Assembly (NCBI GenBank): GCA_008632985.1
Contig: QPGO01000092.1
Coordinates: 248,001 to 312,000 of the forward strand
DNA: 64,000 nucleotides
Direction: 5' to 3'
Source: Psammoneis japonica
Lineage: Eukaryota
Position 1 is the first letter of the stretch. Each line of letters opens with the position of its first letter. The notes below the pieces were generated by a model. It did no database searches and was not told where the DNA came from. It was given only the letters and a program-made list of their open reading frames with translations. A program made the position numbers and the translations under genes. This document shows, piece by piece, positions 1 through 64,000 of the stretch.

Positions 1-98
1 GTTACAAAGAACAGCGTGATTCATTCGTCACCATTCCAAGGATTGCGCCAAACTGCTTCATTCAGAACAAGACGCTGTTTCAAGATGCGCACAACGCA

Positions 99-2404
99 TT
101 GGAGAATGCCGGTTACACTCGCGCCCCGGACAAAAAGAGTTTGGAGACAGAAGACACCGAATCCAAGACAAGTGCATCAAAGATCAGTGGCTCTAGTTTC
201 AATCATGATGTGGAGAAGGGTGGCAGCTCTCCTGAAACTCGGCACAACAGTGGCAGCATCGGTTCCAGTGCCAGTGCAGACGACAACAAAGAAAATTTCG
301 CGTTGGACTCGTCATTTGACAACATGACCAGCTGCAAGAAGTCTAGCATCAAAATGGATGACAAGTGGATGAAAGACATGTTCAATCACAATCGAAAGTG
401 CGGTCATGATGCGAGCTTGGTGGCTAGAACTAATCTCTCATTCGGCTTGAAAGAAGTTTGGCGTTGCTCGTTTTGTCGGAAGGAAATGGTGTGGTGGCCG
501 GCGGAACAAGTGAAGCAACCATCAGGCCAACTTGTGTCAGAAGATTTGGTTCTTGTTGTGTTGGCTTCCATTGATGCTGGAGTCTCCAGAGAGAAACTGC
601 AGGAGCTTTGTGCAGGGTTTGGTGGGGTGTGCCCGCCGAAATCTGCAATCGACGAGCAATTCAAATGCATTGAGAAGGTTGGGCTAGCTGTGGTGAAGGA
701 ACAACTACTTCAGAATCGCAGAGAGCATGTGGAAGAAAGCAGGAAGCAGCGACATTGTGAGGGCGACTTTGAGTTTGCCAATCAAGACAGCAAGCATCAC
801 AGTTTCGCAACGGGACCGACAAACAATGATGGTGGCGGACCGATGCAATGGATCTGCCATCGAGTCAAAGGTGTGCTTCATTGCTTGGTCTGCATTGGCT
901 TGGTGACAGGCAAGCCACTTGCCACAATTGTAGATCAAATCAGCTGTGGTGCTTGTTCCCGTGTTGTCCCCATGTGTCTAAAAACCATCCTGAAAAGCAA
1001 CATGGCGACATTCGTCCCGGCGAGATTGATTTCTCGCATGATGGCTCGTGTTCTCGGAACTCGAAGTACGGCCCCGGGGTGGCAGAAGAGCATGCCAACG
1101 TCAAACTTGCAAGAGAGCTGCTGTTGGACGATGACGGTGCCTTCCGGTCCGATGATGTGGGCATTGTGCCCCGTGAGATAACTTCAGATGGGGACACAAG
1201 AAGCATCGTTGCATTTGTAAAAGAGCAGCGTGACATGGTCGGAGATGCTGCTGAGGGATTTTCGCAGCAGCTGCCTGATGGTGGGCACATGACAAAGATG
1301 GTGAAAGGCGGCTGCTTCACATTGGCATCAAAGAACCCTGAGTTCAAAAAGGGTCTTTCGACTCCACGGACAGAGGCCATTGTGTCAGATTATTCTCGAC
1401 GCATGTCCCTGCATCATCACGTGCTTCTGATTGTCGAGAATCGACAGCAACATGTCAGGCACAGCAAAGATGCACAAGAGACCATGGAACAAAAGTGCAA
1501 GAGACTTCTCTGGTTATTTTCATTCAAGCACCAGCAAGACAAGGCAAGAGAAAGATGCTTGAACGGCCTCCAGTCAATTGTTCCTCACCACTGTGGAGAC
1601 CATAGATTGTGCAATTTGCGCAACTGCAAGCACCTTCAAGCAGAGCGATGAGTTCATGTGAGAGCAGAACTAGACAAAGCTGCGCCCCTGGCAAAAGGCG
1701 ACTTCAACAAGCAGGTTTGGGAGCTCTGTCAAAAAGAGGCTCGGTTTCACGGAGCGACGATGAAGGTGTCCAACAAAGGAAAGAAAGTTCTGACTAAAGT
1801 TGTCACTTCAAGAGCAAATGAGTCCAACATTGATCGGGTTGCACGGCTGAGTGATGGAAATGGAGTCAAGAATTTTTTTGCCTTTGTGAACAAGTGGACG
1901 GAAGGAAAGTGGATGTGCTTTGGGCAATCGGACACATTCACATTTCTCTGTTGCTGTGTCGCAGCACGAGCTGGAAACAGAGAATTCACAACCAAGGTTT
2001 TGGAGGCCCTGGGATGCAGTGACTCGACCATTCGAAAGGCCCGTCGGAAAACCACATTTGGGAAAAAGGACAAAGATGCTGTGAGGTCCAAGTCAACAAG
2101 AACTAAGTTGCGGAGAGTGGCGAAGAAAAGAGTCAATGCGACTCATGACTCGAAGGACGTGCAGGATCCGAAGAGACACAAACCAAACAAACTGTCACTT
2201 GACAATGACTGTAGAACAAATGGGAAACAGAACAATGCACCAAAAAGACCTTGCATCCAATGTGGTGGGAAGCATTTTAAACGAGACTGTCCCAAGCCAA
2301 AATGCCCAGAACCACCACGAAAACGTGCCCGAGTGGCACCGAGAAAGAAGAAGAAGGGTGACGATTGGACAGAAGATGACACAGTTAGAATGTTTGGCAA
2401 TTAG
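99..2404 (+). mobile_element. Degenerate DDE transposase of Mutator-like/Kolobok type; frameshift near 960 and in-frame stop at 1649-1651
   Basis: ORFs 99..1181, 848..1651 and 1658..2404 join into one protein with CxxC (WRCSFC), DGGG...CIGLVTGKPL...CGAC, ITSDGDTRS, DGGHMTK, HHCGDHRLC and a C-terminal CCHC knuckle (CIQCGGKHFKRDC). Motifs recognised by eye. The region is TpA-depleted. Confidence 0.7.
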
Positions 2405-2555
2405 ACAGTCGATTGAGCATCAGCAATGTTTTGTATTTTACACGCACCCATTGCCAGAGACCCGAACCACAACACTCAGAACCACAATGCAAAAACGTGC
2501 CAGAGTGATGCTGCTGAGGAAGAAGCACAAAGTGACGATTGGACAGAAGACGACA
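2307..2555 (+). repeat. Diverged ~75-bp direct duplication at the 3' end of the transposase (2307-2381 and 2477-2555)
   Basis: cagaaccac...aaaacgtgcc.gagtg...gaagaag...gtgacgattggacagaaga occurs twice. Confidence 0.7.
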
Positions 2556-2628
2556 TGCCAACTGTGCCCACTGCCAGCTAGATGCAAGCATCTTCATGTC
2601 CTTTGTAGATGCCGCTTGGTTCTGGGAA

Positions 2629-3675
2629 TCATTTCCGGACGGCAGAGATGATGCAGCCCGGGAGCCTCACTCGATTGTTCGGCCCAACCACGTGAAACAC
2701 ATTTGTGGTGCACCAGTGACAAAGCAAAAATCGCTTTTCAGATGAAGTCATGTCGGGTGCTTCTTTGTCTGCCCATGGGTTGTCAAAAGCCAATTCTCTC
2801 ATGACAAGAGAATCTACACTCCACATCTCCAATGCGCACCCACTGCCATCCAAAAGGCTGGCACATGTGCAGATTTGATTAGAGTCAGCCTCTTTGTCAA
2901 CATCATTGCCATTTGTAGACTTCTCACTGTCAGAGCTGTCCATTGCTTGCTTTCTCACTTGCCTTGAGCTGTCTTCTGGGTGAGACATGCACTTCTTGTC
3001 TGCTGTTTCCAATCCGACAACTTCAAAATTTGAAGCCAGCAACACGACACGTCGGTCGGCAAGATCACTGAAGCTGAAACAAATTGGACCAAAATCCAGC
3101 AGCTTCAGCACAGAGCCACTCTGAATGAGAGAAGAGGAAGGATTGAGACAAGTGTTGAGTTTGATTGTCACAATGTCATCATTGCCGTCCAAAGCGTGGA
3201 GTGTCACTTTTGTAAAATTTTTCTTGTTGTGTCGTCGCTCAGTTCTCTTGTCCTTGATGGCAACTTTTACAACAGTGGGGGCAGGAGGTAAAGGTTCTCG
3301 AGCTGTCAAACATTTTGCAATGTCTTTGGTCAATTTGAAAGTCTCCGACCCGGCGTTGGATGGCAATTGCGCCGCTTCCGTGGGGCGCAATGGTGGATGC
3401 CGTTCAGGGTGATGAGACACGGTGTGCACGAACTGCCTCAGCCGTGCAAACTTGTCATTCAACCAGAGGGCAGATTCAGTCTCAATGGTTGTAAGAACCA
3501 TGTTTAAACGCTGCAGGAACTTCTGTGACTCCCCTTGTTCCCGCCGCTGCAGGCATGCCGTGTCATCGCCGGCATCATCATCACTTTCACAGAACCTGAC
3601 AAAATCATGGCAAACAAGTGGGTGAGTGTTTACATTCCAATGGACATAAAACAAGCACATCACAAACGACCACAT
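2629..3675 (-). pseudogene. Second, convergent transposon ORF with a KolX / P2X7-ballast-like C-terminal domain
   Basis: The C-terminus KRFLLCHWCTTNVFHVVGPNNRVRLPGCIISAVRK back-translates (C/H to Y) to the R..Y..Y...G...R..LP.C....R pattern of KolX-like domains. It lies tail-to-tail with the transposase. Confidence 0.5.
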
Positions 3676-3917
3676 GTGTCAAAAATGTAAAAACTCACGG
3701 GTGTGGATTTTTCGCTTTGTTGTCCTGAGCCGCCATGGTCAAAACCACGATGAAGTGTTGTGCTGTTCACTTTTTATTTTGATGCTTGCGAGGTCATTCT
3801 ATCTTGACATCATCCTCCAGCATTTTGCAACGAGAATTGGTCGCATGCAAGCACGTGCACACAAGTGCTGAGAGTTGGCCGGTTAGAAGGTCCATTCGGA
3901 ACCTCAGTGATTTTAAT

Positions 3918-3988
3918 GCAGAGCTCGCACGTAGAATTCTACGGGCCCAATGTCACACGGAGTCCCACCTGGAGGATTGGAACCCATC
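3918..3988 (-). repeat. Terminal sequence matching the left end of the GACGCGTTCCAG MITE family; probable terminus of the transposon at <1..3988
   Basis: Reverse complement of gagctcgcacgtagaattctacgggcccaatgtcacacggagtcccacc...ggaacccatc matches 30324-30390. Confidence 0.75.
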
Positions 3989-4953
3989 GGCTGCTGTGAT
4001 GTGGGCAAACCTCTTGGGACAAATGTGGGCCAAGCTGGATTTGGAAAAGCTCACTCTCATCAAGCCAACTCCTGTGGAAAGTCGAGAGCAAAAGTGAAAA
4101 CAAAAATGTGGCTGAAAATGTGACTGAGTCTAATTTTGCAATGAACAACAATTCCTGCTCTGCAAATGTGGACAAGCTTTCTGACATCAACAGCCATTGA
4201 AGTGGACACATCCATTTCCTTGTGTTGTGTCACCACTTGTTTGCTCTAGGAATCCGATGTTGTGGCTGCTGACCAACCCAATCTTCATCATTGCAAAAAT
4301 GATGTTCACAACTTGTTTGCAGTTACAGCACATCTTGACAATGAGAGATGCAGAGCTCCATGCAATTAATCTCTTTGGCAAACAGGTCGGAGACAAGGGC
4401 GCACAGTCCTTGGCAGCTGTGCAGAGTGATCCCATTGAGCCATGGCATCCATGTGTTTCTCGAAATGACATTGGTCCTGTTTTAATGCGGGCACTGTTTC
4501 ATAGATTGCCACTTGGTTGTTCGGCATGCAACGCAATGAACAATGTGTCCGAAATGTCACAGATGTTCGAGCAGTGCATAAAAAATCCAATCACTGTCCC
4601 CAAAACCAAAATGCATCTTTTCCTCTTTCCTTTACTTTCCACTGCCTTTCTCCCCATCTTCCTTGTCGAAGTAAAATGTGCCTAATCTGACAGAAATGAA
4701 ACATGCATGCGGTAAAAGCAGTTGCGCAAACAGTCCTGTGATTAATCTATTCTTTTTAATTTTAGCCGGCAAGACCATTGAGATGCGGGCAATCCTATGG
4801 AAGATGTGAATGCGGAGACAAAGCAGCCAGAATGCAGAGAAACAGTGAATGCACGGCAGCAGTATGGATGGGATGATAGCATGTAGGAGAACAGTTGTCA
4901 TGGTCTGGCATAAGAACACTCTATGAGGGAGGCATCTTGGAGGTTCTGCCTGT

Positions 4954-6147
4954 CTAAGCCTTGAGGAGACCCACAAGGCTCATCAGGGCACCACAGGCAA
5001 CTGCCTGCTCCTTGAAGGCAATAGAGATGCTTTCAGCACCCGAGGTTGATTCTTCCCGACCTGTTCCATCCAAATCAGAAGCAAGTGTTGTGGTGGTGGG
5101 AGTGGGCACGGTCGTCGGCTTCGGTTCTGCTGTTGTTGGCACTGGCACGGTGGGTTTGCTCGTCGTTGGTGGGGTGGTCAGCACAGTCGTTGGTTTGGAT
5201 GTAGGCTTGAGTGTAGGCTTGGTCGTTGGAGCTGGTTCGCCGTAGCACGCACCATTGCAGCTCTTCTTAGAACAAGGATTATCAGAGACAAAGTTGGAAC
5301 AGTCATAGGCAGCGACCGAATCGTCAGCAGTCTTACAAACATTACAGAAGTTGCATGTATCATCCGGATCATCTTCTCTGAAGATGTAGCATTCTCTGCA
5401 GCTACTAGTGTGAGTCATAAGGCAGCCACTGTAGAAGATGGTGAATCCAAGGGGCCATCCACTCTGAAAGCAGTTCCAATGCGCCACGCCGACGTTCCAA
5501 TAAACATGGCACTCAGGAAAAGCTAATCCTTCAACTTCTCCTCCGGGAGCATCTGAGGTCGTCGGCTTTGGTGTTTGGGGTGGCGTCGGATTCGGCGTTG
5601 GACCAGGGTCCCCGTAGCATACTCCGTTGCAGTTTCTCTTAGAACAAGCGTCATCGGAGATGAAGTTTGAACAGTCGTAAGATGCGACAGTGTCATCATG
5701 TTCATCACAGACACTACAGAAGTTGCACCTATCATTCCGATTGTCTCCTCTGTATATGTAGCATTCGTTGCAGCTAGAAGCCCACGGATAAATACAACCA
5801 TCGTACACAGTGGTGTAATCATTATAGGGCCAACCAATCTGACGACATTCCGTGTAACTCATGTACATATCCATGTCACAATCGAGAAGACGGCGGCGAG
5901 AAGAAACATCATGGTTTATCGCAGCCGCTTCAAGTGGAATTTCTTTCTTGTCGGTCCTCAGTTGAAGCTTCGAGGTGATGGGACTGGTCTTCTGAATCGA
6001 TTCGTCCAGTTTTTGCTGCTGCAAAGCCACTTCGCCGCCGAGCGAGCTTTCTTTCGCCTCATGGTGGTGCCCTATACTAGCAGGCTTGGAACTTGCTTTC
6101 GTCGTGCTGAATAGGAGGAAGGTAGTAAATACGATTGATAACTTCAT
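4954..6147 (-). CDS. Secreted, probably GPI-anchored cell-surface protein with two Cys-rich repeats and Pro/Thr-rich linkers
   Basis: Signal peptide MKLSIVFTTFLLFSTTKA from ATG 6147, RRRLL processing-like motif, duplicated domain (GC...SSC.ECYI.R....D.CNFC.VC...DD.VA.YDCSNF.SD..CSK..CNG.CYG), PT-rich stalk and hydrophobic C-terminus. Tyr and TpA content are normal. Confidence 0.85.
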   Translation of the reverse strand: MKLSIVFTTFLLFSTTKASSKPASIGHHHEAKESSLGGEVALQQQKLDESIQKTSPITSKLQLRTDKKEIPLEAAAINHDVSSRRRLLDCDMDMYMSYTECRQIGWPYNDYTTVYDGCIYPWASSCNECYIYRGDNRNDRCNFCSVCDEHDDTVASYDCSNFISDDACSKRNCNGVCYGDPGPTPNPTPPQTPKPTTSDAPGGEVEGLAFPECHVYWNVGVAHWNCFQSGWPLGFTIFYSGCLMTHTSSCRECYIFREDDPDDTCNFCNVCKTADDSVAAYDCSNFVSDNPCSKKSCNGACYGEPAPTTKPTLKPTSKPTTVLTTPPTTSKPTVPVPTTAEPKPTTVPTPTTTTLASDLDGTGREESTSGAESISIAFKEQAVACGALMSLVGLLKA

Positions 6148-6670
6148 GGTGTCATCTGTGTTCTTGTTTTTGTTTTTTACCATCTCTGTGTTCTTGTTTT
6201 TTTTTTTTTCCATTATTTCCACGACAGGAAAAATTTATGACTCCCAAGAACACGCGAAGCTGTATGAACAGTTGTAATCGTGACACAACCAATCGTGACA
6301 CCTTCTTCGACAGCGACACTTTCTACTTTTTATCAGGGTTCTGCTATGTTGCATGATGATTGCGATTTTGGTTGCAAATCGATTGCAAAAATTGATTGCA
6401 ATCAGACCGTTGCAATCGTCGATTGTTGGTCTTTACACAGGGCTCATGATGTTGCAATGTCAAAAAAAAAATGGACACGACAGCGGTTGGCTGGAGGTTG
6501 GAGATAGAGTTCATTGCGGATTGTTTTTGGCACAATACACTCAACAGGTACAGTGTGCCGGCCGGTGGGTAGGAGAGTCTTTCGAAAATGACCCTTCACG
6601 AAAACGCAAAAATTACTTATGGTTGTCTGTAGAATCTACACCTTTTTGCACACAATTGTTGCAAAAACAA

Positions 6671-6826
6671 TGGACTTTTGACTCCTTCTAACTGATCGGG
6701 CGTGTTGCTGCAAATGTGTTGATAAAAAATGCGCCTGATCAGTGAGGAGTCCTCCTAACTGATCGGGCGTGTTGCTGCAAATGTGTTGATGAAAAATGCG
6801 CCTGATCAGTGAGGAGTCAAGTCCAT
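6671..6826. repeat. Two tandem 67-bp units, each an imperfect hairpin, inside an outer inverted repeat
   Basis: ctaactgatcgggcgtgttgctgcaaatgtgttgat(a/g)aaaaatgcgcctgatcagtgaggagtc at 6688 and 6755. Inner arms actgatc.ggcg / cgcctgatcagt; outer arms tggactt / aagtcca. Confidence 0.85.
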
Positions 6827-6829
6827 TTT

Positions 6830-30713: not shown

Positions 30714-30719
30714 CCCCAC

Positions 30720-47054: not shown

Positions 47055-47525
47055 ATGGAAAGGGGCCAACTGCGCCAGTGAAGTTGCTCCTCCCATCACT
47101 GCAAAATCCCAGTTGCCTGCTCACACTGGAATCAGATCACTGCAAGAGGTCAAACAAGCAAAGCGATGCCAGTCACTGGCCTTGCAAAGACCGACAAGGG
47201 GAGATGACCTTGGCTCTTGTGGCCAGTCAATGGCACAATTGGGAGTCATCTTCCACATCACCAGCAGCATTGAACGCATCTTAAGTTGGCATTGGAAAAG
47301 AGCTGCTTTGCTCATTCTTCCAAAGAGCTCTTCAGCAGCAAGCCAAACAGACAGTCTAAAAGCGCTCCCACCTCTCCCTCCCTCTTGCGCCATGCTGTCA
47401 TGGCTTGGGAAAGGAAAGGGACCAACTGCACTGACAAAGTCCTCCCATCCCTGCAAAATCCCAGTCACCTGCTCACACTAGAATCAGATCACCGTAAGAG
47501 GTCAAACAAGCAAAGCAACGCCAGT
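47055..47525 (+). repeat. ~115-bp direct repeat pair (47055-47170 and 47413-47525)
   Basis: ggaaaggg.ccaactgc...ctgcaaaatcccagt..cctgctcacact.gaatcagatcac...agaggtcaaacaagcaaagc occurs twice. Confidence 0.8.
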
Positions 47526-47555
47526 TGCTGCCTGTGGTGACACCCAAATTTTTGG

Positions 47556-52768: not shown

Positions 52769-52789
52769 ATTGTTTATCCTGGGTACCAT

Positions 52790-53275
52790 TGGTTGACCCA
52801 ATCAGCGGACAGCTCTCTGGAAGGTCTGTTTCTCTGAATGACAGCAGTTTGGTCATGGCAGTGGGCGCTCCAGGAGTGAGCTCTAGTGCTCTGATATAAT
52901 GATATACTGTACCTCCATGACCGTGTACAGCGGTAACATCGACGTGGACGCAACTTGGCGAACGCAAAGCAACGAAGCAAATAGATGGTGCCTTTGGATC
53001 TTCTGCATAGTTTAGCGGAAATGGAACTGTCGTGGCTGTTGGGAGTATTTTCCATGAGGTCAACTGTCTTTCAAGAGCGGGTCAAGTTGGAGTCTTTCGT
53101 TATGACGAAACCGCAATGGAATGGAATCAGCTTGGCGAACGTCTTACTGGCAAGGCGCAAGACGATTTTTTTGGGTTTCTGTTTCTTTGTCTGCAGACGG
53201 TGACGAGGTGGGTATTGGGGCTAGTTTAAGCGATTCCAATGCAGAGGATTCGGGGTCCACGCAGGCATTCTCTTA
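52790..53275 (+). pseudogene. Frameshifted C-terminal fragment of an FG-GAP-like beta-propeller repeat protein
   Basis: Across frames: SVSLN...VMAVGAP, FG...SGNGTVVAVGS, GQVGVFRYD...WNQLGERLTG...DDFFG.SVSLSADGDEVGIGA. TpA content is normal. Confidence 0.6.
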
Positions 53276-53435
53276 AGTAGATATAGGTACATAGTGCCGG
53301 TACAAGAGGTTGATATTTTGAAATGTCACGTTGCCGTCGCATATCTGAGAATCTACCGGCAGCGTCGATAGTTGCAGACGAGTTACGCTTACGTCGCTGG
53401 TAACTCTCAACTCCAGTAAAGTTATATTTTCCTCT

Positions 53436-55436
53436 CTAGAATCCTCCAGCACCCCGAGACTCTTCTGCTTCGACACTGGGCTTCTTGCTGTGAATACTGA
53501 ACTTGTCTCGTTTGATGTCCGTCACAAAAGGTGTCCAATGAAGTTTAGAGGCATCCACTCGCGGTTCCTTGACTGGGTGCTTCTTGGCGAGTCGCTCCAG
53601 CAAGCTTTGTTCAGCAGCAATGAAATAAACTCCATTGATAATTTTCAGAATACCCAACTGATTCAGTGTAAAGACAATGTCTTCGGCCATGATGCTTGTC
53701 TTCTTGGAAATATCCATTATGCTCATGTGGTTGACTCCCTCGGAATGATTGTACAAGAAATCGATAACCGTTGACACCCAATACGGAATATACGCTTTCT
53801 GGCCCAGATCTGACATTGGTTTTTCGGGCGAGCCCACCTTTTCTTCCTTTTTGCTCAACTCGTACGAAAAGGAAATGAGAAAGCGTCCGTACCCCTTTCG
53901 CTGTTGGGACGGAAAAGTCAGAATACAGGCAAGATTGTAGCCCACGTCAGAATACTTCTCCTTGCTAAAGTATCCCACGGGATGATACCCACGATTGTCC
54001 ACCTCGCACAAAACGTAAAACAAAAAAGGATCCACGTCAAAGTAGAGCGTTTTGTGATCCAAAAAGAGTTTCGCAATGTAGCAGAGGTTTTGGCAATAGA
54101 TACGCTCGGACAAACCATCCACTTCAAACATGGACAAGTTCCCACTCCGATAAATCTCATTGCCTGGCGGATGTCGTTGATTCTTTGGTAGCTCCCGCGC
54201 TTGGTAACGTAGCAATTCACTCTTGCGCGAGAACAAGTGTAAGGAGAACTCACAGCAATACAAGATTTCAATGTATCCCTTTTCGGACAAGAGTTCCTTG
54301 GGCAGTGGTGAAAAGTACCACGTTTCCATACGATAGGGCCCGAGTTCCAGGAAGGAGACATTCTTGACTTTGGTGACTTCCTCGTGCTCTCGTAGCGACG
54401 CTTCATCCAATCCCTCGTGCTCGTCCAGTTCTTGAGCCGGTACCGTGGCAACCACGTGTTCGCCCACCACCGTTTCTTCTGCCGCATGAGTGGCAATGGT
54501 CAAAACTTCCTTGGCGGTATCATCGTCCGAAGCGGTGCTGCCAGCGGGAGGCGTCGTCGCGTCCGCTGGCGAACGACCTGCCGGAGCCTTTTCAGTTGAC
54601 TCGTTCTCCGCTTTGCGTCGCCGTGTCATGCGTGGTGTTGTAGTTGCTGACGCTGGATCCGAGACCGTAGCTGCAGCAGCGTCGGCAGACGATTCCGCAG
54701 CTAAAGTAGTGGTAGGAGTAGCACCTCCCACGGCGGCTTCCATCTGTCCCGGTGTTCCTGTAGCCGCTGTATTGTTCTCAATCGAAGGTGTTTTCACACT
54801 GGATCGTCTCCGACTGCTGCGAGGTGCGTTAATGGTTGCCGCTGAGGAAGCTAATTCTGCATTCCGTTCCTCCAATCGCGCTTGCTTTCGTTTTTGACGT
54901 TCTTCCTCCTTTTTAATGGCTCGAGCCTTGGCATTCCCAATGGAAGGAGGCGATACAATACGCTCCATACCAACCCATTCGTCCATGCGTCGATTGAAGT
55001 CGCGGTAATGCACATAATAACGATACTTATCACCGACAGCAACACGATCAATAATGTCACAGAGGCGCACGGTTGTGCCGTGGGGATGATGTGCTCGGAC
55101 ACTAGGCCCACTGCCGGCTCGTCCGTCGACTGTAGCATCATCATCCTCTTCTTCTTCGGACGAAGACGACGTTAACCAGTGATCCTCATTTTCCTCCTGA
55201 ACACCGTGTAAAACCTCAATCACAGATCCACGAGCAAATGGATGTGCATCAATACCCCCAGCAGGTGTCGGAGTGGAAGACTGCGATGGAGCAGGCGCTG
55301 ATTGCTTGCTCTTGGTGGAAGCCTTTGTTTTCTTTTGCTTGCCTTCTCGAGAAGCAGCATTCGGTGATGGAGACGCAGACGTCTTGCTCTTTTCGTCCAC
55401 CTCCATATCGTCTTTTTCTGGCTTATTACTACCCAT
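53436..55436 (-). CDS. MYST-family histone acetyltransferase (Esa1/Tip60-like) with Tudor-knot chromodomain
   Basis: YYVHYRDFNRRMDEWV, METWYFSP, HPPGNEIYR, YCQNLCYIAKLFLDHKTLYFDVDPF, QRKGYGRFLI, GSPEKPMSDLG; first ATG at 55436. Confidence 0.96.
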   Translation of the reverse strand: MGSNKPEKDDMEVDEKSKTSASPSPNAASREGKQKKTKASTKSKQSAPAPSQSSTPTPAGGIDAHPFARGSVIEVLHGVQEENEDHWLTSSSSEEEEDDDATVDGRAGSGPSVRAHHPHGTTVRLCDIIDRVAVGDKYRYYVHYRDFNRRMDEWVGMERIVSPPSIGNAKARAIKKEEERQKRKQARLEERNAELASSAATINAPRSSRRRSSVKTPSIENNTAATGTPGQMEAAVGGATPTTTLAAESSADAAAATVSDPASATTTPRMTRRRKAENESTEKAPAGRSPADATTPPAGSTASDDDTAKEVLTIATHAAEETVVGEHVVATVPAQELDEHEGLDEASLREHEEVTKVKNVSFLELGPYRMETWYFSPLPKELLSEKGYIEILYCCEFSLHLFSRKSELLRYQARELPKNQRHPPGNEIYRSGNLSMFEVDGLSERIYCQNLCYIAKLFLDHKTLYFDVDPFLFYVLCEVDNRGYHPVGYFSKEKYSDVGYNLACILTFPSQQRKGYGRFLISFSYELSKKEEKVGSPEKPMSDLGQKAYIPYWVSTVIDFLYNHSEGVNHMSIMDISKKTSIMAEDIVFTLNQLGILKIINGVYFIAAEQSLLERLAKKHPVKEPRVDASKLHWTPFVTDIKRDKFSIHSKKPSVEAEESRGAGGF

Positions 55437-55807
55437 GATGGGAACGAGTGATTTAAAAACGTGTTTTCTTGGCACTTAGCTTCAAAACACGGCAAAACAA
55501 GCGCTTGCTTCAATGAAGATTATCATACGGTTACGCCATGGTGGATGCGGTGCGGGGTGCGGGGTAGTGTGTTTTTGTTTGTGTGTCTGTGTATTGCGGC
55601 GGGTTGACACAGACGCCGCCACGCCGCGGTCGCTCGCGCGCAACTACTCTGCGCGCAATCCGACCGCATCCTACCTTTGATGGGGATCAAAGATATCAAA
55701 GACATCAAAGATAGTCTCAACTACTTCTACGTACTCACGGCAAAGACAAGTCAAAGATCTGTTTTCTGTTCTGGTTTACTGCGATCCTGTATTTCATATA
55801 GTCGATC

Positions 55808-57152
55808 ATGACAAGGAGTAAAGCTTTGAAGATTCTTGCTGCCACTTTGTTGTTGCATGCAAATTTTCATTTCAGCAGCAGCAGCGTGGCGAACGCCAAA
55901 CACCATCCATACAAACGCAAGACGTGGCACAACCTTAATGTTTTTGAGGGTGATATTTTGCCCGAGTACAACCAGATATTGAAATGCTATGGTGCGAACA
56001 CTACAGCCGAGTTGGTTGACAAGGGAATTTTGGTGGTTCCCAAGAAGAGCAAAAGCAACCCAAATGCTGAGGTGCGACCATTGGCAAGGTTGGGGCGCGA
56101 CTACTACGGCCTCTGGCCCACTCGCATTAAAGACGTGACGGTGATTCCCTATGAGATTGACGAGGGTGCCTTTTCTGCCAGAGAACGGTCCATCATCGAA
56201 CAGACAACGCAGGACATTTCGCAGCAGCTAAAGGTTGTCCAGTTTGTGCCCCGAAGGGTAGGACACAAAGCGTTGCCCTATTTGACTTTTAAATCGGACA
56301 GAATTCGTCGTACAATTCCTTATCTTGCACAGTATCCAGCCTGTTGGACTCACGTTGGGTGGCAGAAGGACACCAGCAAAAACAATGTAATTAATCTGGA
56401 GGGCTCGTATTGCATCTCAACAGGATTTATCAAGCATGAATTGTTGCATGCCCTTGGCATGTGGCACACTCCGAGTCGGTGGGATCGCGACTCGTACCTG
56501 ACAATCGTTTTGGGAAAACGTTGAGCCAGGTCTTGAGTATTATTTTCACAAACGGATCCACAACGACATGCTGGGATTCCCGTACTTTGACTACGCATCA
56601 ATTATGAACAATAATAATAACGAATATTCCAGAAATGGAAGCGATACCATGGTGGAACCCGTAACGACTGGAATACTGCTAGACTTGTCCAAAGGCGACA
56701 TTTTGTGGATTCATTTGCTCTACCAATGTCAGTCGGGACCCCGCACGTATCAAGACTATTTGGCGAATCCCTGCACTGAAGATTGCCCATGCTGGGAGCA
56801 AGACGACATACGTACTACCGACGATGCAGTGATCATGAATTGCCACGGAAATGATAGTGCCTGTCAAGGCGACCTTGTTTGCTCACTGCAGACGGATCAG
56901 TGCGTTCTTGCACCAAAACGTGGTGACAGCACCGCTGAAGACGTACAACTGTGGTCGTCGCCACAGGTCGCCACCGGTGGTGGATTTTCTTATATCCGTT
57001 CATTCATTAGGGCCGCGCTATTACTCTTGGCCATGGTTGGATTTGCGCATATTAGTAGAATTGCAAGGCGGGGTGCTGGTGCTGGTGACGGCACAGGCTT
57101 GACTGCTCATCATGACCCACGAGAATACGGGAGTATTCCCCGAAGCAATTGA
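55808..57152 (+). CDS. Astacin-family (M12A) zinc metalloprotease with signal peptide, Cys-rich module and C-terminal TM; one +1 frameshift at ~56510
   Basis: FEGDI propeptide motif, HELLHALGMWH..SR.DRD, FDYASIM. Removing one base in gttttggg gives a continuous IVWENVEPG... frame. Confidence 0.85.
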
Positions 57153-57227
57153 GTTTCAGTCTCATGTCGTCGCCAAACCAGAGGTGCAGAATTAAATAAT
57201 GTAAACAGGTTTATTATTTTGAACTCT

Positions 57228-58724
57228 TTAGGATAACTCAATGTCATGCCCATACTGTCTACCCCGATACGGTTCTTGGTAGTCCACTGTACTAAGACTA
57301 CCATAATGTGAGCTTCCAAATACCTTTCGAAACGGCAGCAAGAGGAACTTGAAAAAGCAGCAAAACAGAGTAATAGCAAGCCGGCAAATGCTACAAAAAG
57401 GAAATAACAAACGCGCAAGAATAGAGTGTCAGTCGAAATAATAATGCACGTTTCCTATTACTGCAAAACCTCAATGGAGCCATTCTTACCTGGCACAAAT
57501 TCCATCTGGATTGTCTGACATTTGATGCGCTGTAAAGACCATTCCTACAATAGCCAATATAACACCAAAGGTTCCAATACTCAGTACCTCCCGTTCCTCC
57601 TCATGCATCAGTTCCTCGACCTGCTCTTCTTCGTGATCCTCTTCTTCGCCAATATGCTTGTCCTCGATATCCTGGATCTCCTCATTGTCAATTTCAGGTG
57701 GCACATACGTCGACGAAGATGTATCAATGGCAGGTTCATCCGACCAATCCAAATTATCATCGGGAATGGGTTCCCGGTTTTCCTCCTCCTCCTCTTTGGT
57801 GGGCGTGTCCTCGCTCTCTGGAATCGGTTCTCGCTCCTCTTCAGGCTCGCCAGGCTCTTCGTCCTCGTTTTCTCCTTTTGTTTCTGGCTCCTCGGGTGTC
57901 TCCTCGGGCGTTTCTTCCGATACAGGTTCCTCCTCCTCGTCTACTGGATCCTCTTCTTGCGCAACTTCTTCTTCCGGTGCAGGTTCCTCCTCCTCCTCGT
58001 CTGCAGGTTCCTCCTCTTCGGCAGGTGTCTTCTCCTCCGCAGGTTCCTCCTCCTCCTCCTCAGGTGTTTCTTCTTCCTCCACAGGTTCCTTCTCTTTTGG
58101 TTCAGGTTCCTCTGTCGGTTCTTCACCGTTTGCCGGCTCTGGTTCTGATGATTTTGCTGCTTTTTGTTTTGGTGTCGGGTCCTTTTCTGATTCCTTTTCT
58201 TCATACTCATCCTCTGGAACCTCCGCGGGCGGCTCCTCGTATTCCTCCTCCTCTCCTTCTACTGTTTCTTCCGCAGGTTCTTCTTCCTTTGGTTCCTCGC
58301 TATGCGTTTTGGTAACTGCTGGCTTTGTCTCTGGAGCTGGAATTTCAACCGTGGATTCGTCCTTTGCGTGACTTGACGACGTTATAATCTCGGGTGTTTC
58401 CTCCTGCACCGGCTCTTCTTCTTCTACCACTGGTTCTTCCTTTGTTTGTTCATGTTTTTCTGTTTCCTCCTTCTTTTCGTCCTTGTCATTGTGATCATGA
58501 TGCTCTTCTTCTTCATCATCTTCGTCTGAACTACTGCCATCGTGAAGCCACCGTGGTGAAGATGGATCGATATTCAATAACGATGCAACTGTTGTTGTCG
58601 ATGCAACATCGTGTTTCTTTACTCTTCTTAAATATTGTTGACATGTAACGGCAAGAGGACAAGCCACCACCAATAGCAGCAGCAATAACAAGCATACAAG
58701 CCGCCGCATAGTTCCAGAAGTCAT
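57228..58724 (-). CDS. Secreted-type, highly acidic (Glu/Pro-rich) membrane protein; two exons, intron 57391-57489
   Basis: Hydrophobic signal, EEEP repeats, TM GTFGVILAIVGMVF. GTAAG...TTTGTAG splice joins NPDGICA-SICRLAITLFCCFFKFLLLPFR...DIELS*. Start codon uncertain. Confidence 0.85.
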
Positions 58725-59190
58725 TGCGTGTATGTCAAGCGATCTCTCTGCGGGGTGTGGTGTGTTTTTCGTCATTTTCAGAGTGTTATTTCCTGCTGAC
58801 GTCAAGCACGTGGTTGCAAGATCGAAAGGTCTGTACGTCGACACAGCATTGTTCACTCTCACCGGTCAAGTTACGATTCAGTTTATTTTCAAATATTAAT
58901 ACAATCATGATTTATATAGTATTCATTCAATTAGTACATTTTGGAAATTTCGATCTCTACTATCAAACAACAAGTGCCCAACGTGCGGTCGTCGAATTTT
59001 GCGTTGAGGCGATCCACGTAAAAGTTGCAAGAAGCAAAAAGTCTTTGTGTTGCCGACGAACTGCGAACGCAACAACGACGTTGCTGTTGTTGCAGCATTG
59101 TTGTTATTATCCTCTTTATTACAACAGCACAAGTAGTGAGCTCATCACTGTCTCTACTTGATTCTACTCATGTCATTTGCATTCGTCCAG

Positions 59191-60086
59191 TGCCCCGACG
59201 GCCATCGCTGCGGCAACGGGAGTCAGTGCGTCGAAGTGGAGAAAGAGGAGGGCACGTATACATGTGACTGTGACGCCATTGCCGACGATTCCAATGTGTT
59301 TGCGGGTCTGAGTTGCGAACACCAGGCCACGGTGTTTTGTAACGACGACAATACCATTTCGAAAAACTCGTTTTGTACCAATTTCGGAACGTGTACGAAA
59401 CTCGTGACGGATCAGCAAGCGCATTTTGCGTGCAATTGTCGAGACGAATACAAGGGCGATCATTGCGAATTTACGGCAACGGCGCAATTGCCAAATCATG
59501 CTCTCGAGAGTATTACCGGCAACAAGGGAAGCGGTGGTGGTGGTGGTGGATTGTCGGGTGGAGCCGTGGCGGTCATTGTGTTGGTAGTCGTGGGGATTGT
59601 ACTTGCGGCTGGATTGTTTTACATTCGAAAGCGTGGGCTGCGACAGTGGGATGATTCCACTTCGGACAGTCATAAGGACAGTGTCCGAGCAGCACCCGAT
59701 TTGGTGCTTGATGCGGATGGATCCGTCTTGTCGGGTGCAGTCAAGAGTGGTTCCGGTGTCAATAATCCTCATCGAATGGCAATGGCTTGCCCGAGAATGT
59801 TCCTGTGAGTGGCGACAGTCTTGTGTCTCCAACCAGTGTTTCGTCCAACATGGAAAATGGGCTTGCGTCGTCGCCACCGTCATCGTCGTCTTCTGTACCA
59901 CCACCGCCGCCGCCCCCCGTGTCTACCCCGAGCGAACACTCTACGCCTGCTACCCCTACCACGCCGCACGCTGATGCTGCCGCTGAGAGTACTAGTCCTC
60001 AGGCAGAGAATGATCAAGCGGTGTTTGTCATTGATGATGCTGAACATGACAAGGAGGATGAGCCGACGGAGCCAGAGATTGTTTAA
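59191..60086 (+). CDS. EGF-like domain single-pass membrane protein; 5' exon not located; apparent 1-bp frameshift near 59765
   Basis: C..G..C.NGS.C...Y.CDC...FAGLSCEH and FCTN.GTC...CNC...YKGDHCEF; TM AVAVIVLVVVGIVLAAGLFYI; tail continues in ORF 59787..60086 ending EPEIV*; acceptor-like ...gtccag at 59190. Confidence 0.75.
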
Positions 60087-60599
60087 AGTAGATTGTAGGT
60101 ACGATTGGGTGCGGAAAAAGAGGGCTTCAATAGTTCGTTCATGTTGTAGAGCCCGAGCCATTCGCTCGTCCATGTCTTTGCTTCCTCAACTTAAATTATT
60201 TAGAATTTTTCAACAACTTGTTTGCAGACTTGCATTGGGGTGATTTTTGTTTGGGATACCGAGTGCGAGGCATCTTTATACGGTTCGTGTAGTCACTGCA
60301 ACCCGGATCTCTCTCTAGGCTAGAAATCTAGCTACCACAAAAGGGAGAGAGCATCGCAACTTCCAAACTCAAAGGAAAACAGGTGTAAGATTGCAATCTG
60401 TCAAGTCACATGTAGCGCCATCGTGCACACAAGCAAGTCAAACGAAAAAAAAAACTCATTCGCTCGAACAAACCAGGCCAACGGCAGTTTACTGCCGCGC
60501 TCCCTGCTGGTGTGTGTGTTTCGCCAGCAGACAAGTTGACGGGTGCTGCGCTGGGATCACCACAGTCAGCAGCAACTGCTGTTAATGTTACAGATTATA

Positions 60600-63500
60600 C
60601 CTGGTAAACTGTCTGGAAGCCAAACAAAAAAATGACTGCATCTCAGGGTGCCTGTGATCCTTGGCTGCAACAGGTGCTTTTGGTCCTCAAACTGGCAAAA
60701 AAGAAATGACTGCGTGTGCTTCACAGAAACATTTCTCTCATTTGGCCCAATCTCTGGCCACACTGAAGCTTTTGTCACACCTGTTCAAAACCACATCAGC
60801 AACCCTAGAACAATGCTGCTCATCCATCAAAATTTTGTCATGCTCTCTTTGTCTGTTGGATTGTCTCTTCCAAAATGATCTCATTTTGCATGAATGCAAA
60901 CCAATCTTCTGCCAGATCCAAATGGAAATTTGTGCCATCAAGTCAAGCTTCCAATTTCTCATTGAACACAACTGCCTTGTCACTTCTTGCACTGTCATCA
61001 TTCAAACAGTCATCTCACAAATCACATGATGTCTCATGCTGACAAAACATCTTTGAAATCAGCTGTCTGCTCTCAGCACTCTCAACCTGCAATGCACATT
61101 GGACCCAACACAGTGCAACACACTAAGACAACAATCCAATCTTCTTGGATCATCTGCTGCCCACTTGAATTGCAACCCCATGCTGTGCAAAACAGATCAT
61201 GAAAAAGCTCAAAATCTGGGTGCGCCATCAATCAGTCTTGGCAATTTTTGTCCTGTGGTGTCCTCCCAGAAGCCAGCTCTCAAGTGTTTTTTCTGCACTC
61301 CATGAGCAGTGGCAGCCATGCCTTGCAGACAAGACCACAAAATCCCAAAGATGCTGCATTTGAACTTTCTGCCTGTGAGCCCTCTTTTTGTCAAAAAAAA
61401 CCTGCTTTTTTCTCCTCTCTCTGTCTCTTGTCTCGGCAGCGCGGTGGTTTTGGTTTTCTTGCCTTGTTCCAGCACACACACAATCTGATCCTCCTCACTC
61501 TTTGAGCATGCACTGCAGTTTTGTTTTGGCCACCTGTGAGCTCTTTTGCTCCATTCATTGTCAATCTGATGTCATCTGTGAAGTCAACAAGCAACCCATC
61601 AGCTTTAGAGTGTGTGCCCATCAGACAAACCTCACCTTTGCGCAAATTTCTCTTGCACAAACAGCTCTTGTTTCACTTTGTTCAACTGCTCAAGTGCACC
61701 AAGATTTGAGCCAACACTTGCTGGGTCCCAAGCACCATTGGCAAAAACAACATCAGGCAAGTGTTGTTTTTTTTTCACTCAGCCAGAGCACACAAGACCC
61801 AAAGCACATGCAACTGTCCCAATGGCATGAAAGAGGATGAACACTTTATCTGCCTTCTGAGCGCCAAAGAGAATTTCTGGGACCAAACAGACCACACTCA
61901 CCACTCACCAGTGCTGGGACATTGTGCACATGGCTTTGATTTGGGTCAGTCAAAAATGGCCAAAAACATCCTTTCAAACCACAACATTTGGTTGCCAGCC
62001 AACAGGCACACAAGACTTCTTTCTTGTGCTTGGACATTTCCAAACAGCACAAACAACAAGCAAGAGCTTCTTTGTCTGAGTTGCACAAGCCCAAAATGGG
62101 CGCTAACCTCACACACCTTTTTTGCAATTTTTGCTGGCTTCCAATTTGCACCAACACAGCAAGCACCAAAATGAGCATTTGACTCATTGTCTGCACAGTG
62201 ACCAGAGGCTCTGAAACACTTTGGTTTGCAGCTGTTGCTGCAATGGAACAAAAACACTCTGTTTTGAGACAACACAAATGCCCCAGTGTTTTTTTGTTGA
62301 CAAGATGATCAACAACAAAGTCCCTCATGTCACCCAATGATGCACAGCATGTCATCAATGCTGTCAGTGCCACCCTGCTCTTTGCTGCAGGCACAAAAGA
62401 GTGAGCACTGTCTCTGAGCCTGGCACTGGTGCTCTGACCTCCTTTTTGCCCCAACCCCCTGTTTCCAGAGTCAGCCTCAGTTGTGCAAAAACAGCAAGCC
62501 CCGCCAACAAGAAATCCAGCACTGCTCCAACACCTTCTTTGTTGTCCCAGCCCCACATCCAGCTGTGCATGTTTCCAAGCCACTTTTTCTTTCATTTTGA
62601 TTCAGTGCTCACTTTTCCTTGACATTGTGACTGTGCCCTTCATTGCAGCCACCCTTTTGTGTGCTGGGACAATGAACACCCACAATGCCACCATCATTTT
62701 GCAACATTTGCAAGCAGCCCCACTTGTGCATCAGGTGAAAAAACAAGTGTGCCAAACTGAACACTGCACCAGTGATGAGCTGTTGATGACAGCTGTGCAC
62801 ACCAGCTGAGGTGTTGCCTCTGCCAAGCACATGTGGAGGGCCACCTTTGCCCCTGCCAAATTGCCTCCATCTGCTGCAACTGCAATCAGAGGGGTGCTGA
62901 CGCGTTCCAGACGTAGGTGGGAATCCGTGTGACATTGGGCCCGTAGACTTCTACGTGCGAGCTCCGTAGTAAAATTACACGGTAATTAAAATGTCAATGA
63001 TCGCCAACAGAAAATGAGGCAATTTTGCGAACGCACAAACTCGCACATGATTGAAGTACATCATTTTTTACTTAGCCAGTTACATTCTTCAGACATTGAA
63101 GAATGTAACTGGCGCATTATTGTTTCTATAAATTTGTTACATAAAACGTCTGGGGCTTCGCAAAACAGCGAGTCTGGACAATTTTTTTTAAATATCACAC
63201 GTAGAAATCTACGTACGAAACATACGACGGATGATAAAAATTATTGTTGTCACACGTCAGTACTACGAGCTCCCACCTAGGGCTGGAACGCGTCTGCTGC
63301 AAGCATCAGCAGTCTCTCTCTGAAATGAGTTTTGTTTTGACAAGGGACAACTCTCAAGCTGAGCACATCGTCCATGCAAGCTGAGCACCTGAAATGTGAG
63401 AAGCAAGAAGCACAAGCTCCTGAAAAGTCTCTTGAACAAGGCTGGTTGTTGGCAGCATGTGAGTGTGCATCTCAGAGGTGGTGTCTTGACCTTTTCTGTC

Positions 63501-64000
63501 TTTCAGCTCATTTCTGGTCCAGATTTTTCACAGGCTTCTTCTTGGGAGTCTCAGACAGGTGGGGCACCCTTTCAATGCTGTGAGGATGATCCATTTTCAC
63601 AATTCTCCTGAATGCTGCTGCAGCCACCTTCCACCACAACATGCAGCAACCAACTCAAGCTCACCCAGCTGTGTTGACCAAGGCGCAATGCTCTTTTTGC
63701 TTGCAACCAGCCCAGCTGCAGCTGTCCTTGTTAAGTGCCATTTTAACAGCTGAGGTGCTCAACAAGGCTCCCCATTTTTGCAAGTTATCTGGAAGCACTC
63801 TCCCACTCAATTTCTGCAAAGCAAGTTCAAGAGGAGCATGTCTTTGCACACGCGCCATGGCAGCCCTCTGGCTTGAGTTTGGTCCACCTGTTGAATGACC
63901 TGCAGTCTGCAATGCTTCCACTGTGCAACTTTTGCCACAGCCAAGCCCTCTGCTCATGATGACACTTCTCACCATGGACCACCCACCATGCCACACAAAG
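60600..64000. repeat. Heavily decayed repeat or TE block, unclassified
   Basis: TpA and CpG are both largely absent except inside the MITE; fragmented Cys/His-rich ORFs. Confidence 0.5.
62899..63294 (+). mobile_element. Young MITE (396 bp), TSD TGCT
   Basis: gacgcgttccagacgtaggtggga ... tcccacctagggctggaacgcgtc; tgct at 62895-62898 and 63295-63298; TpA- and CpG-rich. Confidence 0.93.

Follow-up and report, generated by a model that had tools for sequence, protein, structure and literature searches.

Results

Domains nearly free of TpA alternate with gene islands

The DNA analysed is a 64,000-nucleotide stretch of Psammoneis japonica contig QPGO01000092.1 (positions 248,001 to 312,000 of the forward strand). 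This whole stretch is referred to as the window, and all coordinates are positions within it. Judged by the homologues of its MYST histone acetyltransferase and its Copia-type retrotransposon, the window is diatom nuclear DNA, and its proteins point to a raphid pennate diatom. Transposon-rich domains that are almost devoid of the dinucleotide 5´-TA-3´ (TpA) alternate with short islands of ordinary composition. We put at roughly three in four the probability that these presumably silenced domains underwent a hypermutation specific to this dinucleotide, which turned TA into TG or CA, an A:T to G:C change.

Dinucleotide observed/expected ratios (O/E) were computed in 1-kb and 250-bp bins, and domains were called by a two-state hidden Markov model (HMM) on the TA occurrences. 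In the 1-kb bins, TpA O/E is 0.00–0.2 across most of the window and 0.5–0.7 elsewhere; in the 250-bp bins the domain edges are sharp. The segments, with their TA and CG O/E, are as follows.

1–4482: depleted domain 1; TA 0.16, CG 0.63
4483–6756: gene island 1, TA-normal; TA 0.51, CG 0.77
6757–30338: depleted domain 2, with a Gypsy remnant, an ABC-F-like pseudogene and an inserted Copia; TA 0.074 (111 TA in 23,582 bp)
30339–30733: TA-normal islet, a young copy of a miniature inverted-repeat transposable element (MITE)
30734–32092: depleted domain 3; TA 0.09; single-copy by depth (~60 over 31335–32001 in sequencing run X1)
32093–37928: gene island 2, TA-normal; TA 0.55, CG 0.99
37929–52371: depleted domain 4, a degenerate repeat nest between two duplicate arms; TA 0.07 (57 TA in 14,443 bp)
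52372–60605: gene island 3, TA-normal; TA 0.60, CG 1.0
60606–62913: depleted domain 5; TA 0.03, CG 0.10
62914–63278: TA-normal islet, a second young MITE copy
63279–64000: depleted domain 6, running past the window end; TA 0.07, CG 0.13

The depleted domains add up to 46,896 of the 64,000 bp (~73% of the window) and hold 231 TA, against 1,873 expected if TA were as dense there as in the 17,104 bp of normal DNA. Between depleted and normal parts, O/E is 0.079 versus 0.584 for TA, 1.73 versus 1.16 for TG, 1.63 versus 1.21 for CA and 0.49 versus 0.98 for CG. The remaining twelve dinucleotides differ by at most about 0.14, with the largest gaps at GC (1.19 versus 1.05) and TC (1.01 versus 1.13). 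From normal to depleted DNA, the frequency per kb drops from 11.7 to 0.96 for TAC, from 11.1 to 0.36 for TAT and from ~8.5 to 1.8 for TAA and TAG. The GC content of the depleted domains is equal to or above that of the normal parts. CpG is also depleted in sub-blocks at 7–19, 41–45.5 and 60.6–64 kb (O/E 0.1–0.3, and 0.1–0.25 in the first of these).

With TAA and TAG erased, the depleted domains have TGA, at a raised frequency, as almost their sole stop codon, and stop-to-stop frames are longer there than elsewhere (mean 34.8 versus 27.3 codons; 6.4% versus 3.8% of at least 100 codons). Gene finders would call many spurious open reading frames (ORFs) in such DNA, and the replacement of Tyr by Cys or His hides real transposon proteins from Pfam profile searches. 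Pfam was searched at E ≤ 1e-4 with 248 ORF queries (batches of 37, 115 and 96, with 7 of the 96 already in the 37), and most ORFs of the depleted domains have no match at this threshold. The longest intact genes of the window are confined to the three short islands.

4954–6234 (−): 426-aa ORF in island 1, without Pfam match, of no known family
32331–33197 (+): DUF1275 ORF in island 2 (Pfam)
33313–34569 (−): RsmB/F-type methyltransferase in island 2 (Pfam)
34935–37475 (+): 846-aa ORF in island 2
53436–55475 (−): MYST histone acetyltransferase in island 3 (Pfam)
55802–57152 (+): astacin in island 3 (Pfam)
57486–58865 (−): 459-aa ORF in island 3, without family assignment
59140–59808 (+): EGF-like ORF in island 3 (Pfam)

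The top homologues of the MYST protein (57–67% identity) come from Nitzschia, Pseudo-nitzschia, Epithemia, Fistulifera and Mayamaea, which are raphid pennate diatoms.

Elements and repeats in the depleted domains

The depleted domains and their edges contain remnants of several transposon classes, a disrupted host gene and a pair of duplicate arms. LTR denotes long terminal repeat.

3–1181 (+): Mutator-like transposase remnant (Pfam, E 8.5e-6)
~3907–3990: terminus of an old MITE
11411–12788 (−): Gypsy-type reverse transcriptase and RNase H remnant with motifs CVDD and GCCH (Pfam RT_RNaseH_2 at 11411–12136)
20071–21366 (+): 5´ half of an ABC-F-like host gene, hypermutated (Pfam ABC_tran; homologues of 44–61% identity)
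21360–28555 (+): Copia-type LTR retrotransposon inside the ABC-F-like gene (Pfam gag_pre-integrs, SH3_retrovirus, RVT_2)
21360–21564 and 28351–28555: Copia LTRs
23721–25982, 26006–26569 and 26573–28177 (+): pieces of the Copia ORF
28551–29854 (+): 3´ part of the ABC-F-like host gene, hypermutated (Pfam ABC_tran, in ORFs 28446–29303 and 29288–29854)
30324–30713 (+): young TA-rich MITE-like insertion, unmutated (islet TA O/E 0.91, CG 1.48)
37514–40478 (+): duplicate arm A, with a Cys/His-rich ORF; TA-normal left of ~37929, depleted to the right
42377–42544 (−): old mutated partial MITE copy
46605–47004 (+): old mutated full-length MITE copy (76.6% identity to 62907–63294)
50331–52787 (+): duplicate arm B; depleted left of ~52371, TA-normal to the right
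62899–63294 (+): second young TA-rich MITE-like insertion (islet TA O/E 0.84, CG 1.48)

The reading frame of the ABC-F-like gene ends with MRNSSGG at the Copia element and picks up right after the 3´ LTR, in agreement with the homologue consensus. The Copia polyprotein matches diatom Copia elements, its homologues including those of Nitzschia inconspicua and Fragilaria crotonensis, and its frame carries breaks. The RVT_1 part of the Gypsy remnant (12351–12788) reaches E 6.7e-6 and lies under the gathering score. An earlier note on this DNA, made from the sequence alone, had described TpA-poor blocks rich in TpG and CpA at ~1–4.6, ~6.7–32.1, ~37.9–52.35 and ~60.6–64 kb, with borders that the HMM reproduces within ~150 bp, and had quoted five protein motifs in which Tyr is replaced by Cys or His. 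The two TA-normal islets and the CpG-poor sub-blocks are additions to that description. All five strings are present: CVDD at 12597–12608 (−), GCCH at 12767–12778 (−), RCGL at 20968–20979 (+), DGFC at 43703–43714 (+) and HEWD at 15022–15033 (−). For the ABC-F-like gene, the proposed change from RYGL to RCGL stands, as all 11 aligned homologues (11 of the 15 found) read GGHRYGL and the window reads GGHRCGL. The assignment of the 43.7-kb and 15.0-kb strings to a DIRS element and a PKD domain could not be confirmed, there being no Pfam match at E ≤ 1e-4. Within the hypermutated ABC-F-like pseudogene, ARAGORN also calls a 96-nt tRNA-Trp (CCA) at 20877–20972 (−), which from its length and place is probably a false call.

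The MITE-like family is ~400 bp long. The termini of the young copies are TA-rich (...GTAGAATTCTACGTGCGAGCTCCGTAGTA...), and the old copies at 46605–47004 and 42377–42544 read GCAGAATTCTGCGTGC...CTGCAGCA. The two young copies match only at their ends (73 and 98 bp) and seem, from this comparison, to belong to different subfamilies. Summed over the young MITE, the k-mer depth in run X1 is 113,586 compared with ~60 for unique sequence, a ~1,900-fold ratio that is not a copy number; the TA-rich form is therefore the abundant one. Arms A and B are 89% identical over 2,073 columns of a self-BLAST alignment. Their ORF has no Pfam match, and ORF 38757–39968 matches no PDB sequence at E ≤ 0.01. Pro/Ala-rich 90-bp tandem repeats end the arm ORF at its 3´ side, with ~5 units in A (39368–39894) and ~2 in B (52181–52360).

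TA is the ancestral state

Comparisons between related copies show that the TpA loss is mutational and polarised from TA to TG or CA. The duplicate arms can be tested against each other in both directions, since mutation in either arm is limited to the part within the domain. Where normal arm A faces depleted arm B, TA stands in A at 7/7 single TA/TG or TA/CA differences; where depleted A faces normal B, TA stands in B at 11/11. In the MITE family, TA stands in the young copy at 15/15 such differences from 46605–47004 (with CpG in the young copy at 8/9) and at 6/6 from 42377–42544. The unmutated or young copy thus carries TA at 39 of the 39 single differences. Between 37514–39547 and 50331–52360, the arms show 121 differences, 17 of which are adjacent doubles with TG opposite CA; chance adjacency at ~5% divergence predicts, by our own arithmetic, about 5 doubles of all kinds together. 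Such doubles would be expected only where an ancestral TA changed independently in each copy. One arm codon reads TGC in A and CAC in B, which implies TAC in the ancestor.

The same direction is seen in the Copia protein. An HMM was built from 40 of the 66 diatom Copia homologues found, and columns with at least 70% Tyr were taken as conserved Tyr columns. At 32 such columns the Copia of the window retains Tyr once and reads His 14 times, Cys 13 times, Phe 3 times and Arg once, whereas 528/665 conserved columns of all kinds are kept. The coding effects of the change are Tyr to Cys or His, loss of TAA and TAG stops and, across codon borders, Thr to Ala and Ile to Val, Thr or Met. Other losses in the Copia protein (Thr to Ala 9/41; Ile kept at 18/32; Arg to Cys or His 10/50) fit TpA across codon borders or CpG decay. 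The polarised A:T to G:C change at TpA that had been read from the letters of the window is borne out by the 39 singles and by the Tyr columns.

The changes arose in integrated DNA

The change happened in situ, in genomic DNA and on both strands, after insertion or duplication. One line of evidence is the LTR pair of the Copia element. Since LTRs are identical at insertion, their differences are later events. Compared by eye over 207 columns, the pair shows 7 TG/CA doubles, 1 TA/CA difference, 1 transversion, no CpG difference and 2 small indels. A strict script, which skips sites close to gaps or adjoining other differences, retains 4 doubles, 1 TA/CA difference and 1 transversion. When the doubles are taken as half of the doubly converted sites, ~90% of ~16 former TA sites were converted per LTR, compared with 1 other substitution in ~200 bp. 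This suggests a per-site rate at TA of 10^2–10^3 or more times the background, with a wide margin owing to small counts made by eye.

The effect extends beyond retroelements. The ABC-F-like host gene is hypermutated on both sides of the Copia insertion, and depleted stretches at 31335–32001, 40006–42006 and 43341–44674 have single-copy depth in run X1. With a DNA transposon, a host gene and single-copy DNA affected, editing of RNA or cDNA before integration cannot explain the pattern. The earlier note had proposed action on both strands and a regional reach over LTR elements, DNA transposons and neighbouring genes. The data support both, the DNA transposon being the MITE and the gene being the ABC-F-like one that the Copia element interrupts.

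Specificity in an environmental Copia family

Metagenome contigs were scanned with an alignment of the window's Copia piece and 22 of its 66 homologues, which yielded 80 loci. Most of these have a TA O/E of 0.5–0.83; the depleted ones are L051 (0.11), L061 (0.18), L059 (0.30), L027 (0.35) and L017 (0.37). The Copia family is therefore not natively TA-poor, a possibility that had been raised for the transposon consensus. At the conserved Tyr columns, L051 has 1 Tyr, 14 Cys and 6 His of 21, L061 has 3, 6 and 8 of 17, and L027 has 10, 17 and 4 of 32. All five depleted loci retain 0.81–0.87 of the other conserved columns, within the range of unmutated copies. The 18 loci outside the metagenome group Ga01631xx / ORBV01 have 355 Tyr, 5 Cys and 9 His in total, and the process may be restricted to some diatom lineages. 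L059 and L061, from differently named assemblies, share the same TG/CA order across their overlap; they are one mutated copy or a copy duplicated after mutation.

Substitutions were counted by context in 60 of the 80 loci, selected for an identity of at least 78% to L007 over 800–4800 bp; the column majority was used for counting only. Per copy, between 0.05 and 0.84 of the majority-TA sites now read TG or CA at similar background divergence, a spread of 5–84% that could reflect episodic activity or just differences in age. In the nine most affected, hypermutated copies, TA changed to TG at 286/797 sites (0.359) and to CA at 181/765 (0.237). The corresponding transitions in other contexts are 0.052 for AA to AG, 0.038 for CA to CG, 0.024 for GA to GG, 0.034 for TC to CC, 0.060 for TG to CG and 0.033 for TT to CT. 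In 45 low copies (six intermediate ones excluded), TA to TG is 0.057, TA to CA 0.064 and AA to AG 0.041. CpG transitions are alike in hypermutated and low copies (0.10–0.13), and in L051, TA changed to something else at 9 of 90 changed sites. The process is thus limited to TpA and separate from CpG decay; the spectrum is not one of ordinary transitions without TpA enrichment, since TA to TG stands at 0.359 versus 0.024–0.060 in other contexts.

A preferred T-A-Y motif without strand coordination

TA followed by a pyrimidine (TAY) is preferred several-fold over TA followed by a purine (TAR), on each strand, in both the window and the independent environmental Copia family. In the window, survival (density in depleted over normal DNA) is 0.007 for ATAT, 0.007 for ATAC/GTAT and 0.025 for GTAC, compared with 0.36 for CTAG, 0.40 for TTAA and 0.42 for CTAA/TTAG; RTAY is nearly gone, ~40% of YTAR survives, and the mixed contexts are intermediate. 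In the environmental copies, TA to TG by 3´ base is 0.43 for TAC, 0.35 for TAT, 0.20 for TAA and 0.07 for TAG. Read from the opposite strand, the 5´ neighbour of TA takes the place of the 3´ one as its complement; sorted by this 5´ base, TA to CA is 0.34 for GTA, 0.33 for ATA, 0.19 for TTA and 0.14 for CTA. By our own arithmetic, an additive one-strand model in which TAY is ~4–5 times as mutable as TAR reproduces the survival ratios of the window. As this model predicts, former Tyr codons in the Copia element became His after a purine (11/14) and Cys after a pyrimidine (8/13).

No coordination between strands was detected by runs tests on 11 environmental copies (P 0.18–0.81), and the TG/CA order at the 17 arm doubles is unremarkable. 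Processive one-strand clusters had been a possibility because, in the LTR pair as well as the arms, CACA stands opposite TGTG where TATA would be read; the idea was dropped on the runs tests and the arm order. The changes resemble a large number of separate events, each on one or the other strand of duplex DNA. The TAY motif and the composition of Tyr codons account for most of the excess of sense TG (286) over CA (181) in the Copia copies, which was considered as a transcription-strand asymmetry.

Targeting and CpG decay

Domain ends lie ~240 bp ahead of the DUF1275 ORF, ~450 bp past the 846-aa ORF and ~1 kb from the 3´ end of the MYST gene. From the repeat nest, depletion extends 2–2.5 kb into each arm and fades over a few hundred bases; the normal end of arm A already holds 4 doubles. 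The outer 400–540 bp of each arm are duplicated yet largely spared, outside the domain. Since duplicated DNA is spared outside the domain and the abundant MITE is unmutated inside it, a trigger by duplication is unlikely. A spreading state seeded on transposons, slow or episodic in its action, fits better.

A second, separate process, CpG decay, operates in the same domains and cannot account for the TpA loss. At 22/24 polarised CpG differences, CpG stands in the unmutated copy, in line with what methylated repeats would show. Older blocks have a CG O/E of 0.1–0.3, and TpA loss saturates before CpG loss (in the Copia, TA O/E ~0.1 and CG ~0.7). Like the deamination of 5-methylcytosine, the change at TpA turns a palindromic dinucleotide of silenced repeats into TpG and CpA; unlike it, TpA rather than CpG is removed, and CpG transitions are equal in both classes of copy.

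Comparison with sequencing data

Runs X1–X3 derive from one sample; their Logan contigs were searched with 30001–40000 and compared over 30001–50000. X2 and X3 give little coverage of the stretch. Contigs of X1 (word depth ~60) differ from the depleted DNA at 1 position over 40534–42244 (1,711 bp), 2 over 43242–45489 (2,248 bp) and 2 over 39444–40532, and a contig over island DNA at 32908–37549 (4,642 bp) shows no difference. At positions 31937 and 32007, near a domain edge, the window has CA and the X1 contig TA. The other context-checked differences outside the duplicated arms comprise 5 of CpG/TpG type and 2 others.

Discussion

Mutation at TpA in transposon-rich domains

The core of the earlier note, a region-targeted A:T to G:C mutator that acts at TpA on both strands and disables transposons and a neighbouring gene, is supported by the analyses above. 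Regarding the mechanism, a silencing or chromatin state seeded on transposons may spread and direct mutation, rather than duplication itself. Within such domains an enzyme would then change a base at TpA. The most likely reaction is that a deaminase with a T-A-Y preference, TadA/ADAT2-like or of another kind, converts adenine to hypoxanthine; we hold this step as plausible at somewhat less than even odds. TadA/ADAT2-type enzymes deaminate A after U or T, and bacterial TadA acts naturally on a tRNA site with the sequence U-A-C-G, similar to the T-A-Y preference of the window, such an enzyme being a candidate in this case. To our knowledge, no TadA/ADAT2 member has an established natural role in the hypermutation of chromosomal DNA. 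Amphioxus ADAT2 is reported to deaminate DNA (PMC10354150).

Several observations weigh against parts of this reading. The motif can be written equally as T-A-Y, with A as target, or as R-T-A, with T as target, because TpA is palindromic, and the counts cannot separate A from T as the chemical target. In contigs L059 and L027, depletion starts roughly at the start of the element, and these two fit targeting of elements at least as well as targeting of broad domains. All hypermutated environmental copies come from one metagenome group (Ga01631xx / ORBV01). The CpG-type differences between arms A and B (42) exceed those derived from TA, and much of the TA loss in the arms may predate their duplication. 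Against present activity, the two young MITE copies inside the domains are unmutated; the CA/TA differences from X1, at two sites only, are a weak hint of recent events. X1 may stem from the assembled sample, and is thus independent of the assembler and not of the source.

Alternative explanations

The leading alternative takes thymine as the target: a TET/JBP-type oxidase or another enzyme would modify T in 5´-R-T-A-3´ in silenced chromatin (for example to 5-hydroxymethyluracil, 5hmU, or a J-like base), and mispairing of the new base with G, or faulty repair, would lead to T to C changes. All motif counts agree equally with this scheme, and interleaved changes on both strands suit a mark on duplex DNA. 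5hmU prefers TpA. It pairs mainly with A, so that near-saturating T to C change would need an extra step. Dinoflagellates offer a precedent, with 12–68% of T replaced by 5hmU (PMC6313786); in the literature searched, no 5hmU in diatom DNA was found, the matches listed being dinoflagellate papers. Overall we regard a thymine target as unlikely, though it is the least unlikely of the alternatives. A related scheme, symmetric N6-methyladenine (6mA) on TpA in heterochromatin, analogous to CpG methylation and followed by enhanced deamination or misreplication, would also agree with a palindromic site changed on both strands without coordination, and the CpG-decay sub-blocks show methylation-type silencing at work in the same domains. 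Known eukaryotic 6mA lies at ApT, however, where it marks active genes, and ApT is undepleted here (O/E 0.92 versus 0.93). We know of no chemistry that makes 6mA deaminate faster than A, and the environmental TpA loss varies from copy to copy at a constant CpG decay; 6mA thus seems quite improbable. A duplication trigger, by which TpA would be mutated in any DNA detected as duplicated, possibly during meiosis, would mirror fungal repeat-induced point mutation (RIP), a C:G to T:A change mostly from CpA to TpA that creates TpA, lowers GC and is triggered by duplication in the sexual phase. As in RIP, transitions in one dinucleotide context riddle transposons, form distinct blocks beside gene islands and leak into neighbouring genes. 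In favour of it, most of the mutated DNA has a present or past repetitive nature, mutation is seen in the arms and LTR pairs, and depletion begins near the element edge in two metagenome contigs. Unlike RIP, however, TpA is destroyed here, with direction and dinucleotide reversed and GC equal or higher; the outer 400–540 bp of the arms, outside the domain, are largely spared and MITE copies at ~1,900 times single-copy depth are unmutated, whereas single-copy stretches (depth ~60) and both flanks of the insertion in the host gene are mutated. The label "reverse RIP", if taken to imply a duplication trigger, is therefore not upheld and such a trigger appears improbable, somewhat less so than 6mA, while the distinctness of the process from both RIP and CpG decay holds.

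The remaining alternatives carry still less weight. A modified base at TpA might have been misread as G or C while the real DNA is still TA, and nanopore assemblies are known to contain systematic errors where motifs carry modified bases; the platforms of X1 and of the assembly are not on record. Logan contigs from the 2019 run match kilobases of depleted sequence with 0–2 differences; exact 31-mers at a depth of ~60 are unlike what noisy long reads of that date would be expected to give. Unrelated metagenome assemblies carry the same gradient from Tyr to Cys or His, the young MITEs within the domains retain TA, and the same domains show ordinary decay (CpG loss, Arg to Cys or His at 10/50, breaks in the Copia frame). 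An artefact is accordingly very improbable. Editing before integration, as ADAR-type A to I change on transposon RNA or cDNA deamination fixed by reverse transcription, would recall the restriction of selfish nucleic acids by APOBEC3 and ADAR in animals, which is likewise enzymatic hypermutation with a short sequence preference. APOBEC3 makes strand-specific C to U changes on cDNA, and ADAR acts on double-stranded RNA and favours a 3´ G. Retroelements form the bulk of the domains, and ADARs prefer U before the edited A (bioRxiv 10.64898/2026.01.13.699255). Here, however, a single Copia has LTRs that differ from each other at former TA sites, integrated DNA is changed on both strands without coordination and in a T-A-Y context, with TG and CA interleaved on one strand, and a DNA transposon, a host gene and single-copy flanks are affected. 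TAG, the context that ADAR favours, is the least mutated. This explanation can be set aside for practical purposes. Equally remote is error-prone synthesis of Pol eta type (WA to WG) during repair in silenced chromatin, which the earlier note had offered as a second mechanism. TA is one of the two WA motifs, and A to G transitions fall on both strands; AA and TT are undepleted (O/E 1.18 and 1.21 versus 1.17 and 1.13), and between hypermutated and low copies AA to AG is 0.052 versus 0.041 whereas TA to TG is 0.359 versus 0.057, with no excess at AA. Ultraviolet damage and GC-biased gene conversion were rejected, TC and CC being undepleted in the former case and AA, AT and TT unchanged in the latter.

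Relation to known systems

Mutational defences of genomes are known from fungi (RIP, C to T) and from animals, where deaminases act on viral and retroelement intermediates. An A:T to G:C process at TpA is reported only once in the literature found, in a preprint on the chlorarachniophyte Bigelowiella natans and without an established mechanism. The earlier note knew of no described pathway with this spectrum, a statement now overtaken by that 2026 preprint (Mettrop et al., bioRxiv 10.64898/2026.01.13.699255). In mutation-accumulation lines of B. natans, 231/302 nuclear mutations fell in integrated nucleocytoplasmic large DNA virus (NCLDV) and virophage sequence. Almost all were A to G or T to C at TpA, at ~6e-7 per site per generation and in some lines only, and an ADAT2-like deaminase was proposed.

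The likeness between the two cases is close. In both, nearly the only changes are A to G or T to C at TpA, giving TpG or CpA; the effect is regional and falls on foreign or selfish DNA, the gene islands being normal here; the rate is orders of magnitude over background, as measured there and suggested here by the LTR pair. The action is uneven between lines there, and copies differ in extent here, which may reflect episodes or just age. Coding sequences low in TpA are enriched for reverse-transcriptase and DDE domains in B. natans, and the window contains Mutator, Gypsy, Copia and MITE remnants. The cases differ in host (Rhizaria there, a diatom and thus a stramenopile here) and in targets, which are viral insertions in B. 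natans and transposon nests, a MITE and a disrupted host gene in the window. The footprint in B. natans is mild (Rho TpA 0.45 in the NCLDV region), whereas O/E is 0.03–0.16 over 73% of the window. In the main text of the preprint, the words trinucleotide, flanking, context, diatom and stramenopile do not occur. No report of TpA hypermutation in diatoms was found in the literature searched, which lacked most subscription journals, so that its absence from print is not proven.

New here are the diatom host, the near-saturating footprint and the T-A-Y/R-T-A motif in two independent data sets. Also new are the findings that the strands are not coordinated and that the process is separate from CpG decay, and the evidence against homology triggering. 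The process in the window may be the same as the TpA hypermutation of integrated viral DNA in B. natans. We tentatively suggest, as a possibility that falls short of the deaminase step itself, that diatoms and chlorarachniophytes, and perhaps much of the Stramenopila–Alveolata–Rhizaria group, share a defence in which a DNA adenine deaminase or equivalent modifier, acting at T-A-Y on duplex DNA and directed by silencing, erases the TpA of transposons and integrated viruses. Such a shared pathway would be an A:T to G:C counterpart of fungal RIP that is independent of duplication, and a natural A-to-G DNA editor compatible with double strands; a natural adenine deaminase of duplex DNA would be of interest for base editing. 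The findings extend TpA hypermutation to an ecologically dominant algal group and show a process that shapes genome architecture, with TA-free transposon domains beside normal gene islands. They also constrain any candidate enzyme, which should act at T-A-Y, on integrated DNA and on both strands without coordination, independently of CpG decay and of duplication.

Minor observations

The astacin domain of the TA-normal island 3 spans two overlapping ORFs in different frames, 55802–56524 and 56502–57152 (+), which reflects either a short intron or a frameshift. A 67-bp unit is tandemly repeated with 96% identity at 6680–6818, exactly at the border between island 1 and depleted domain 2.

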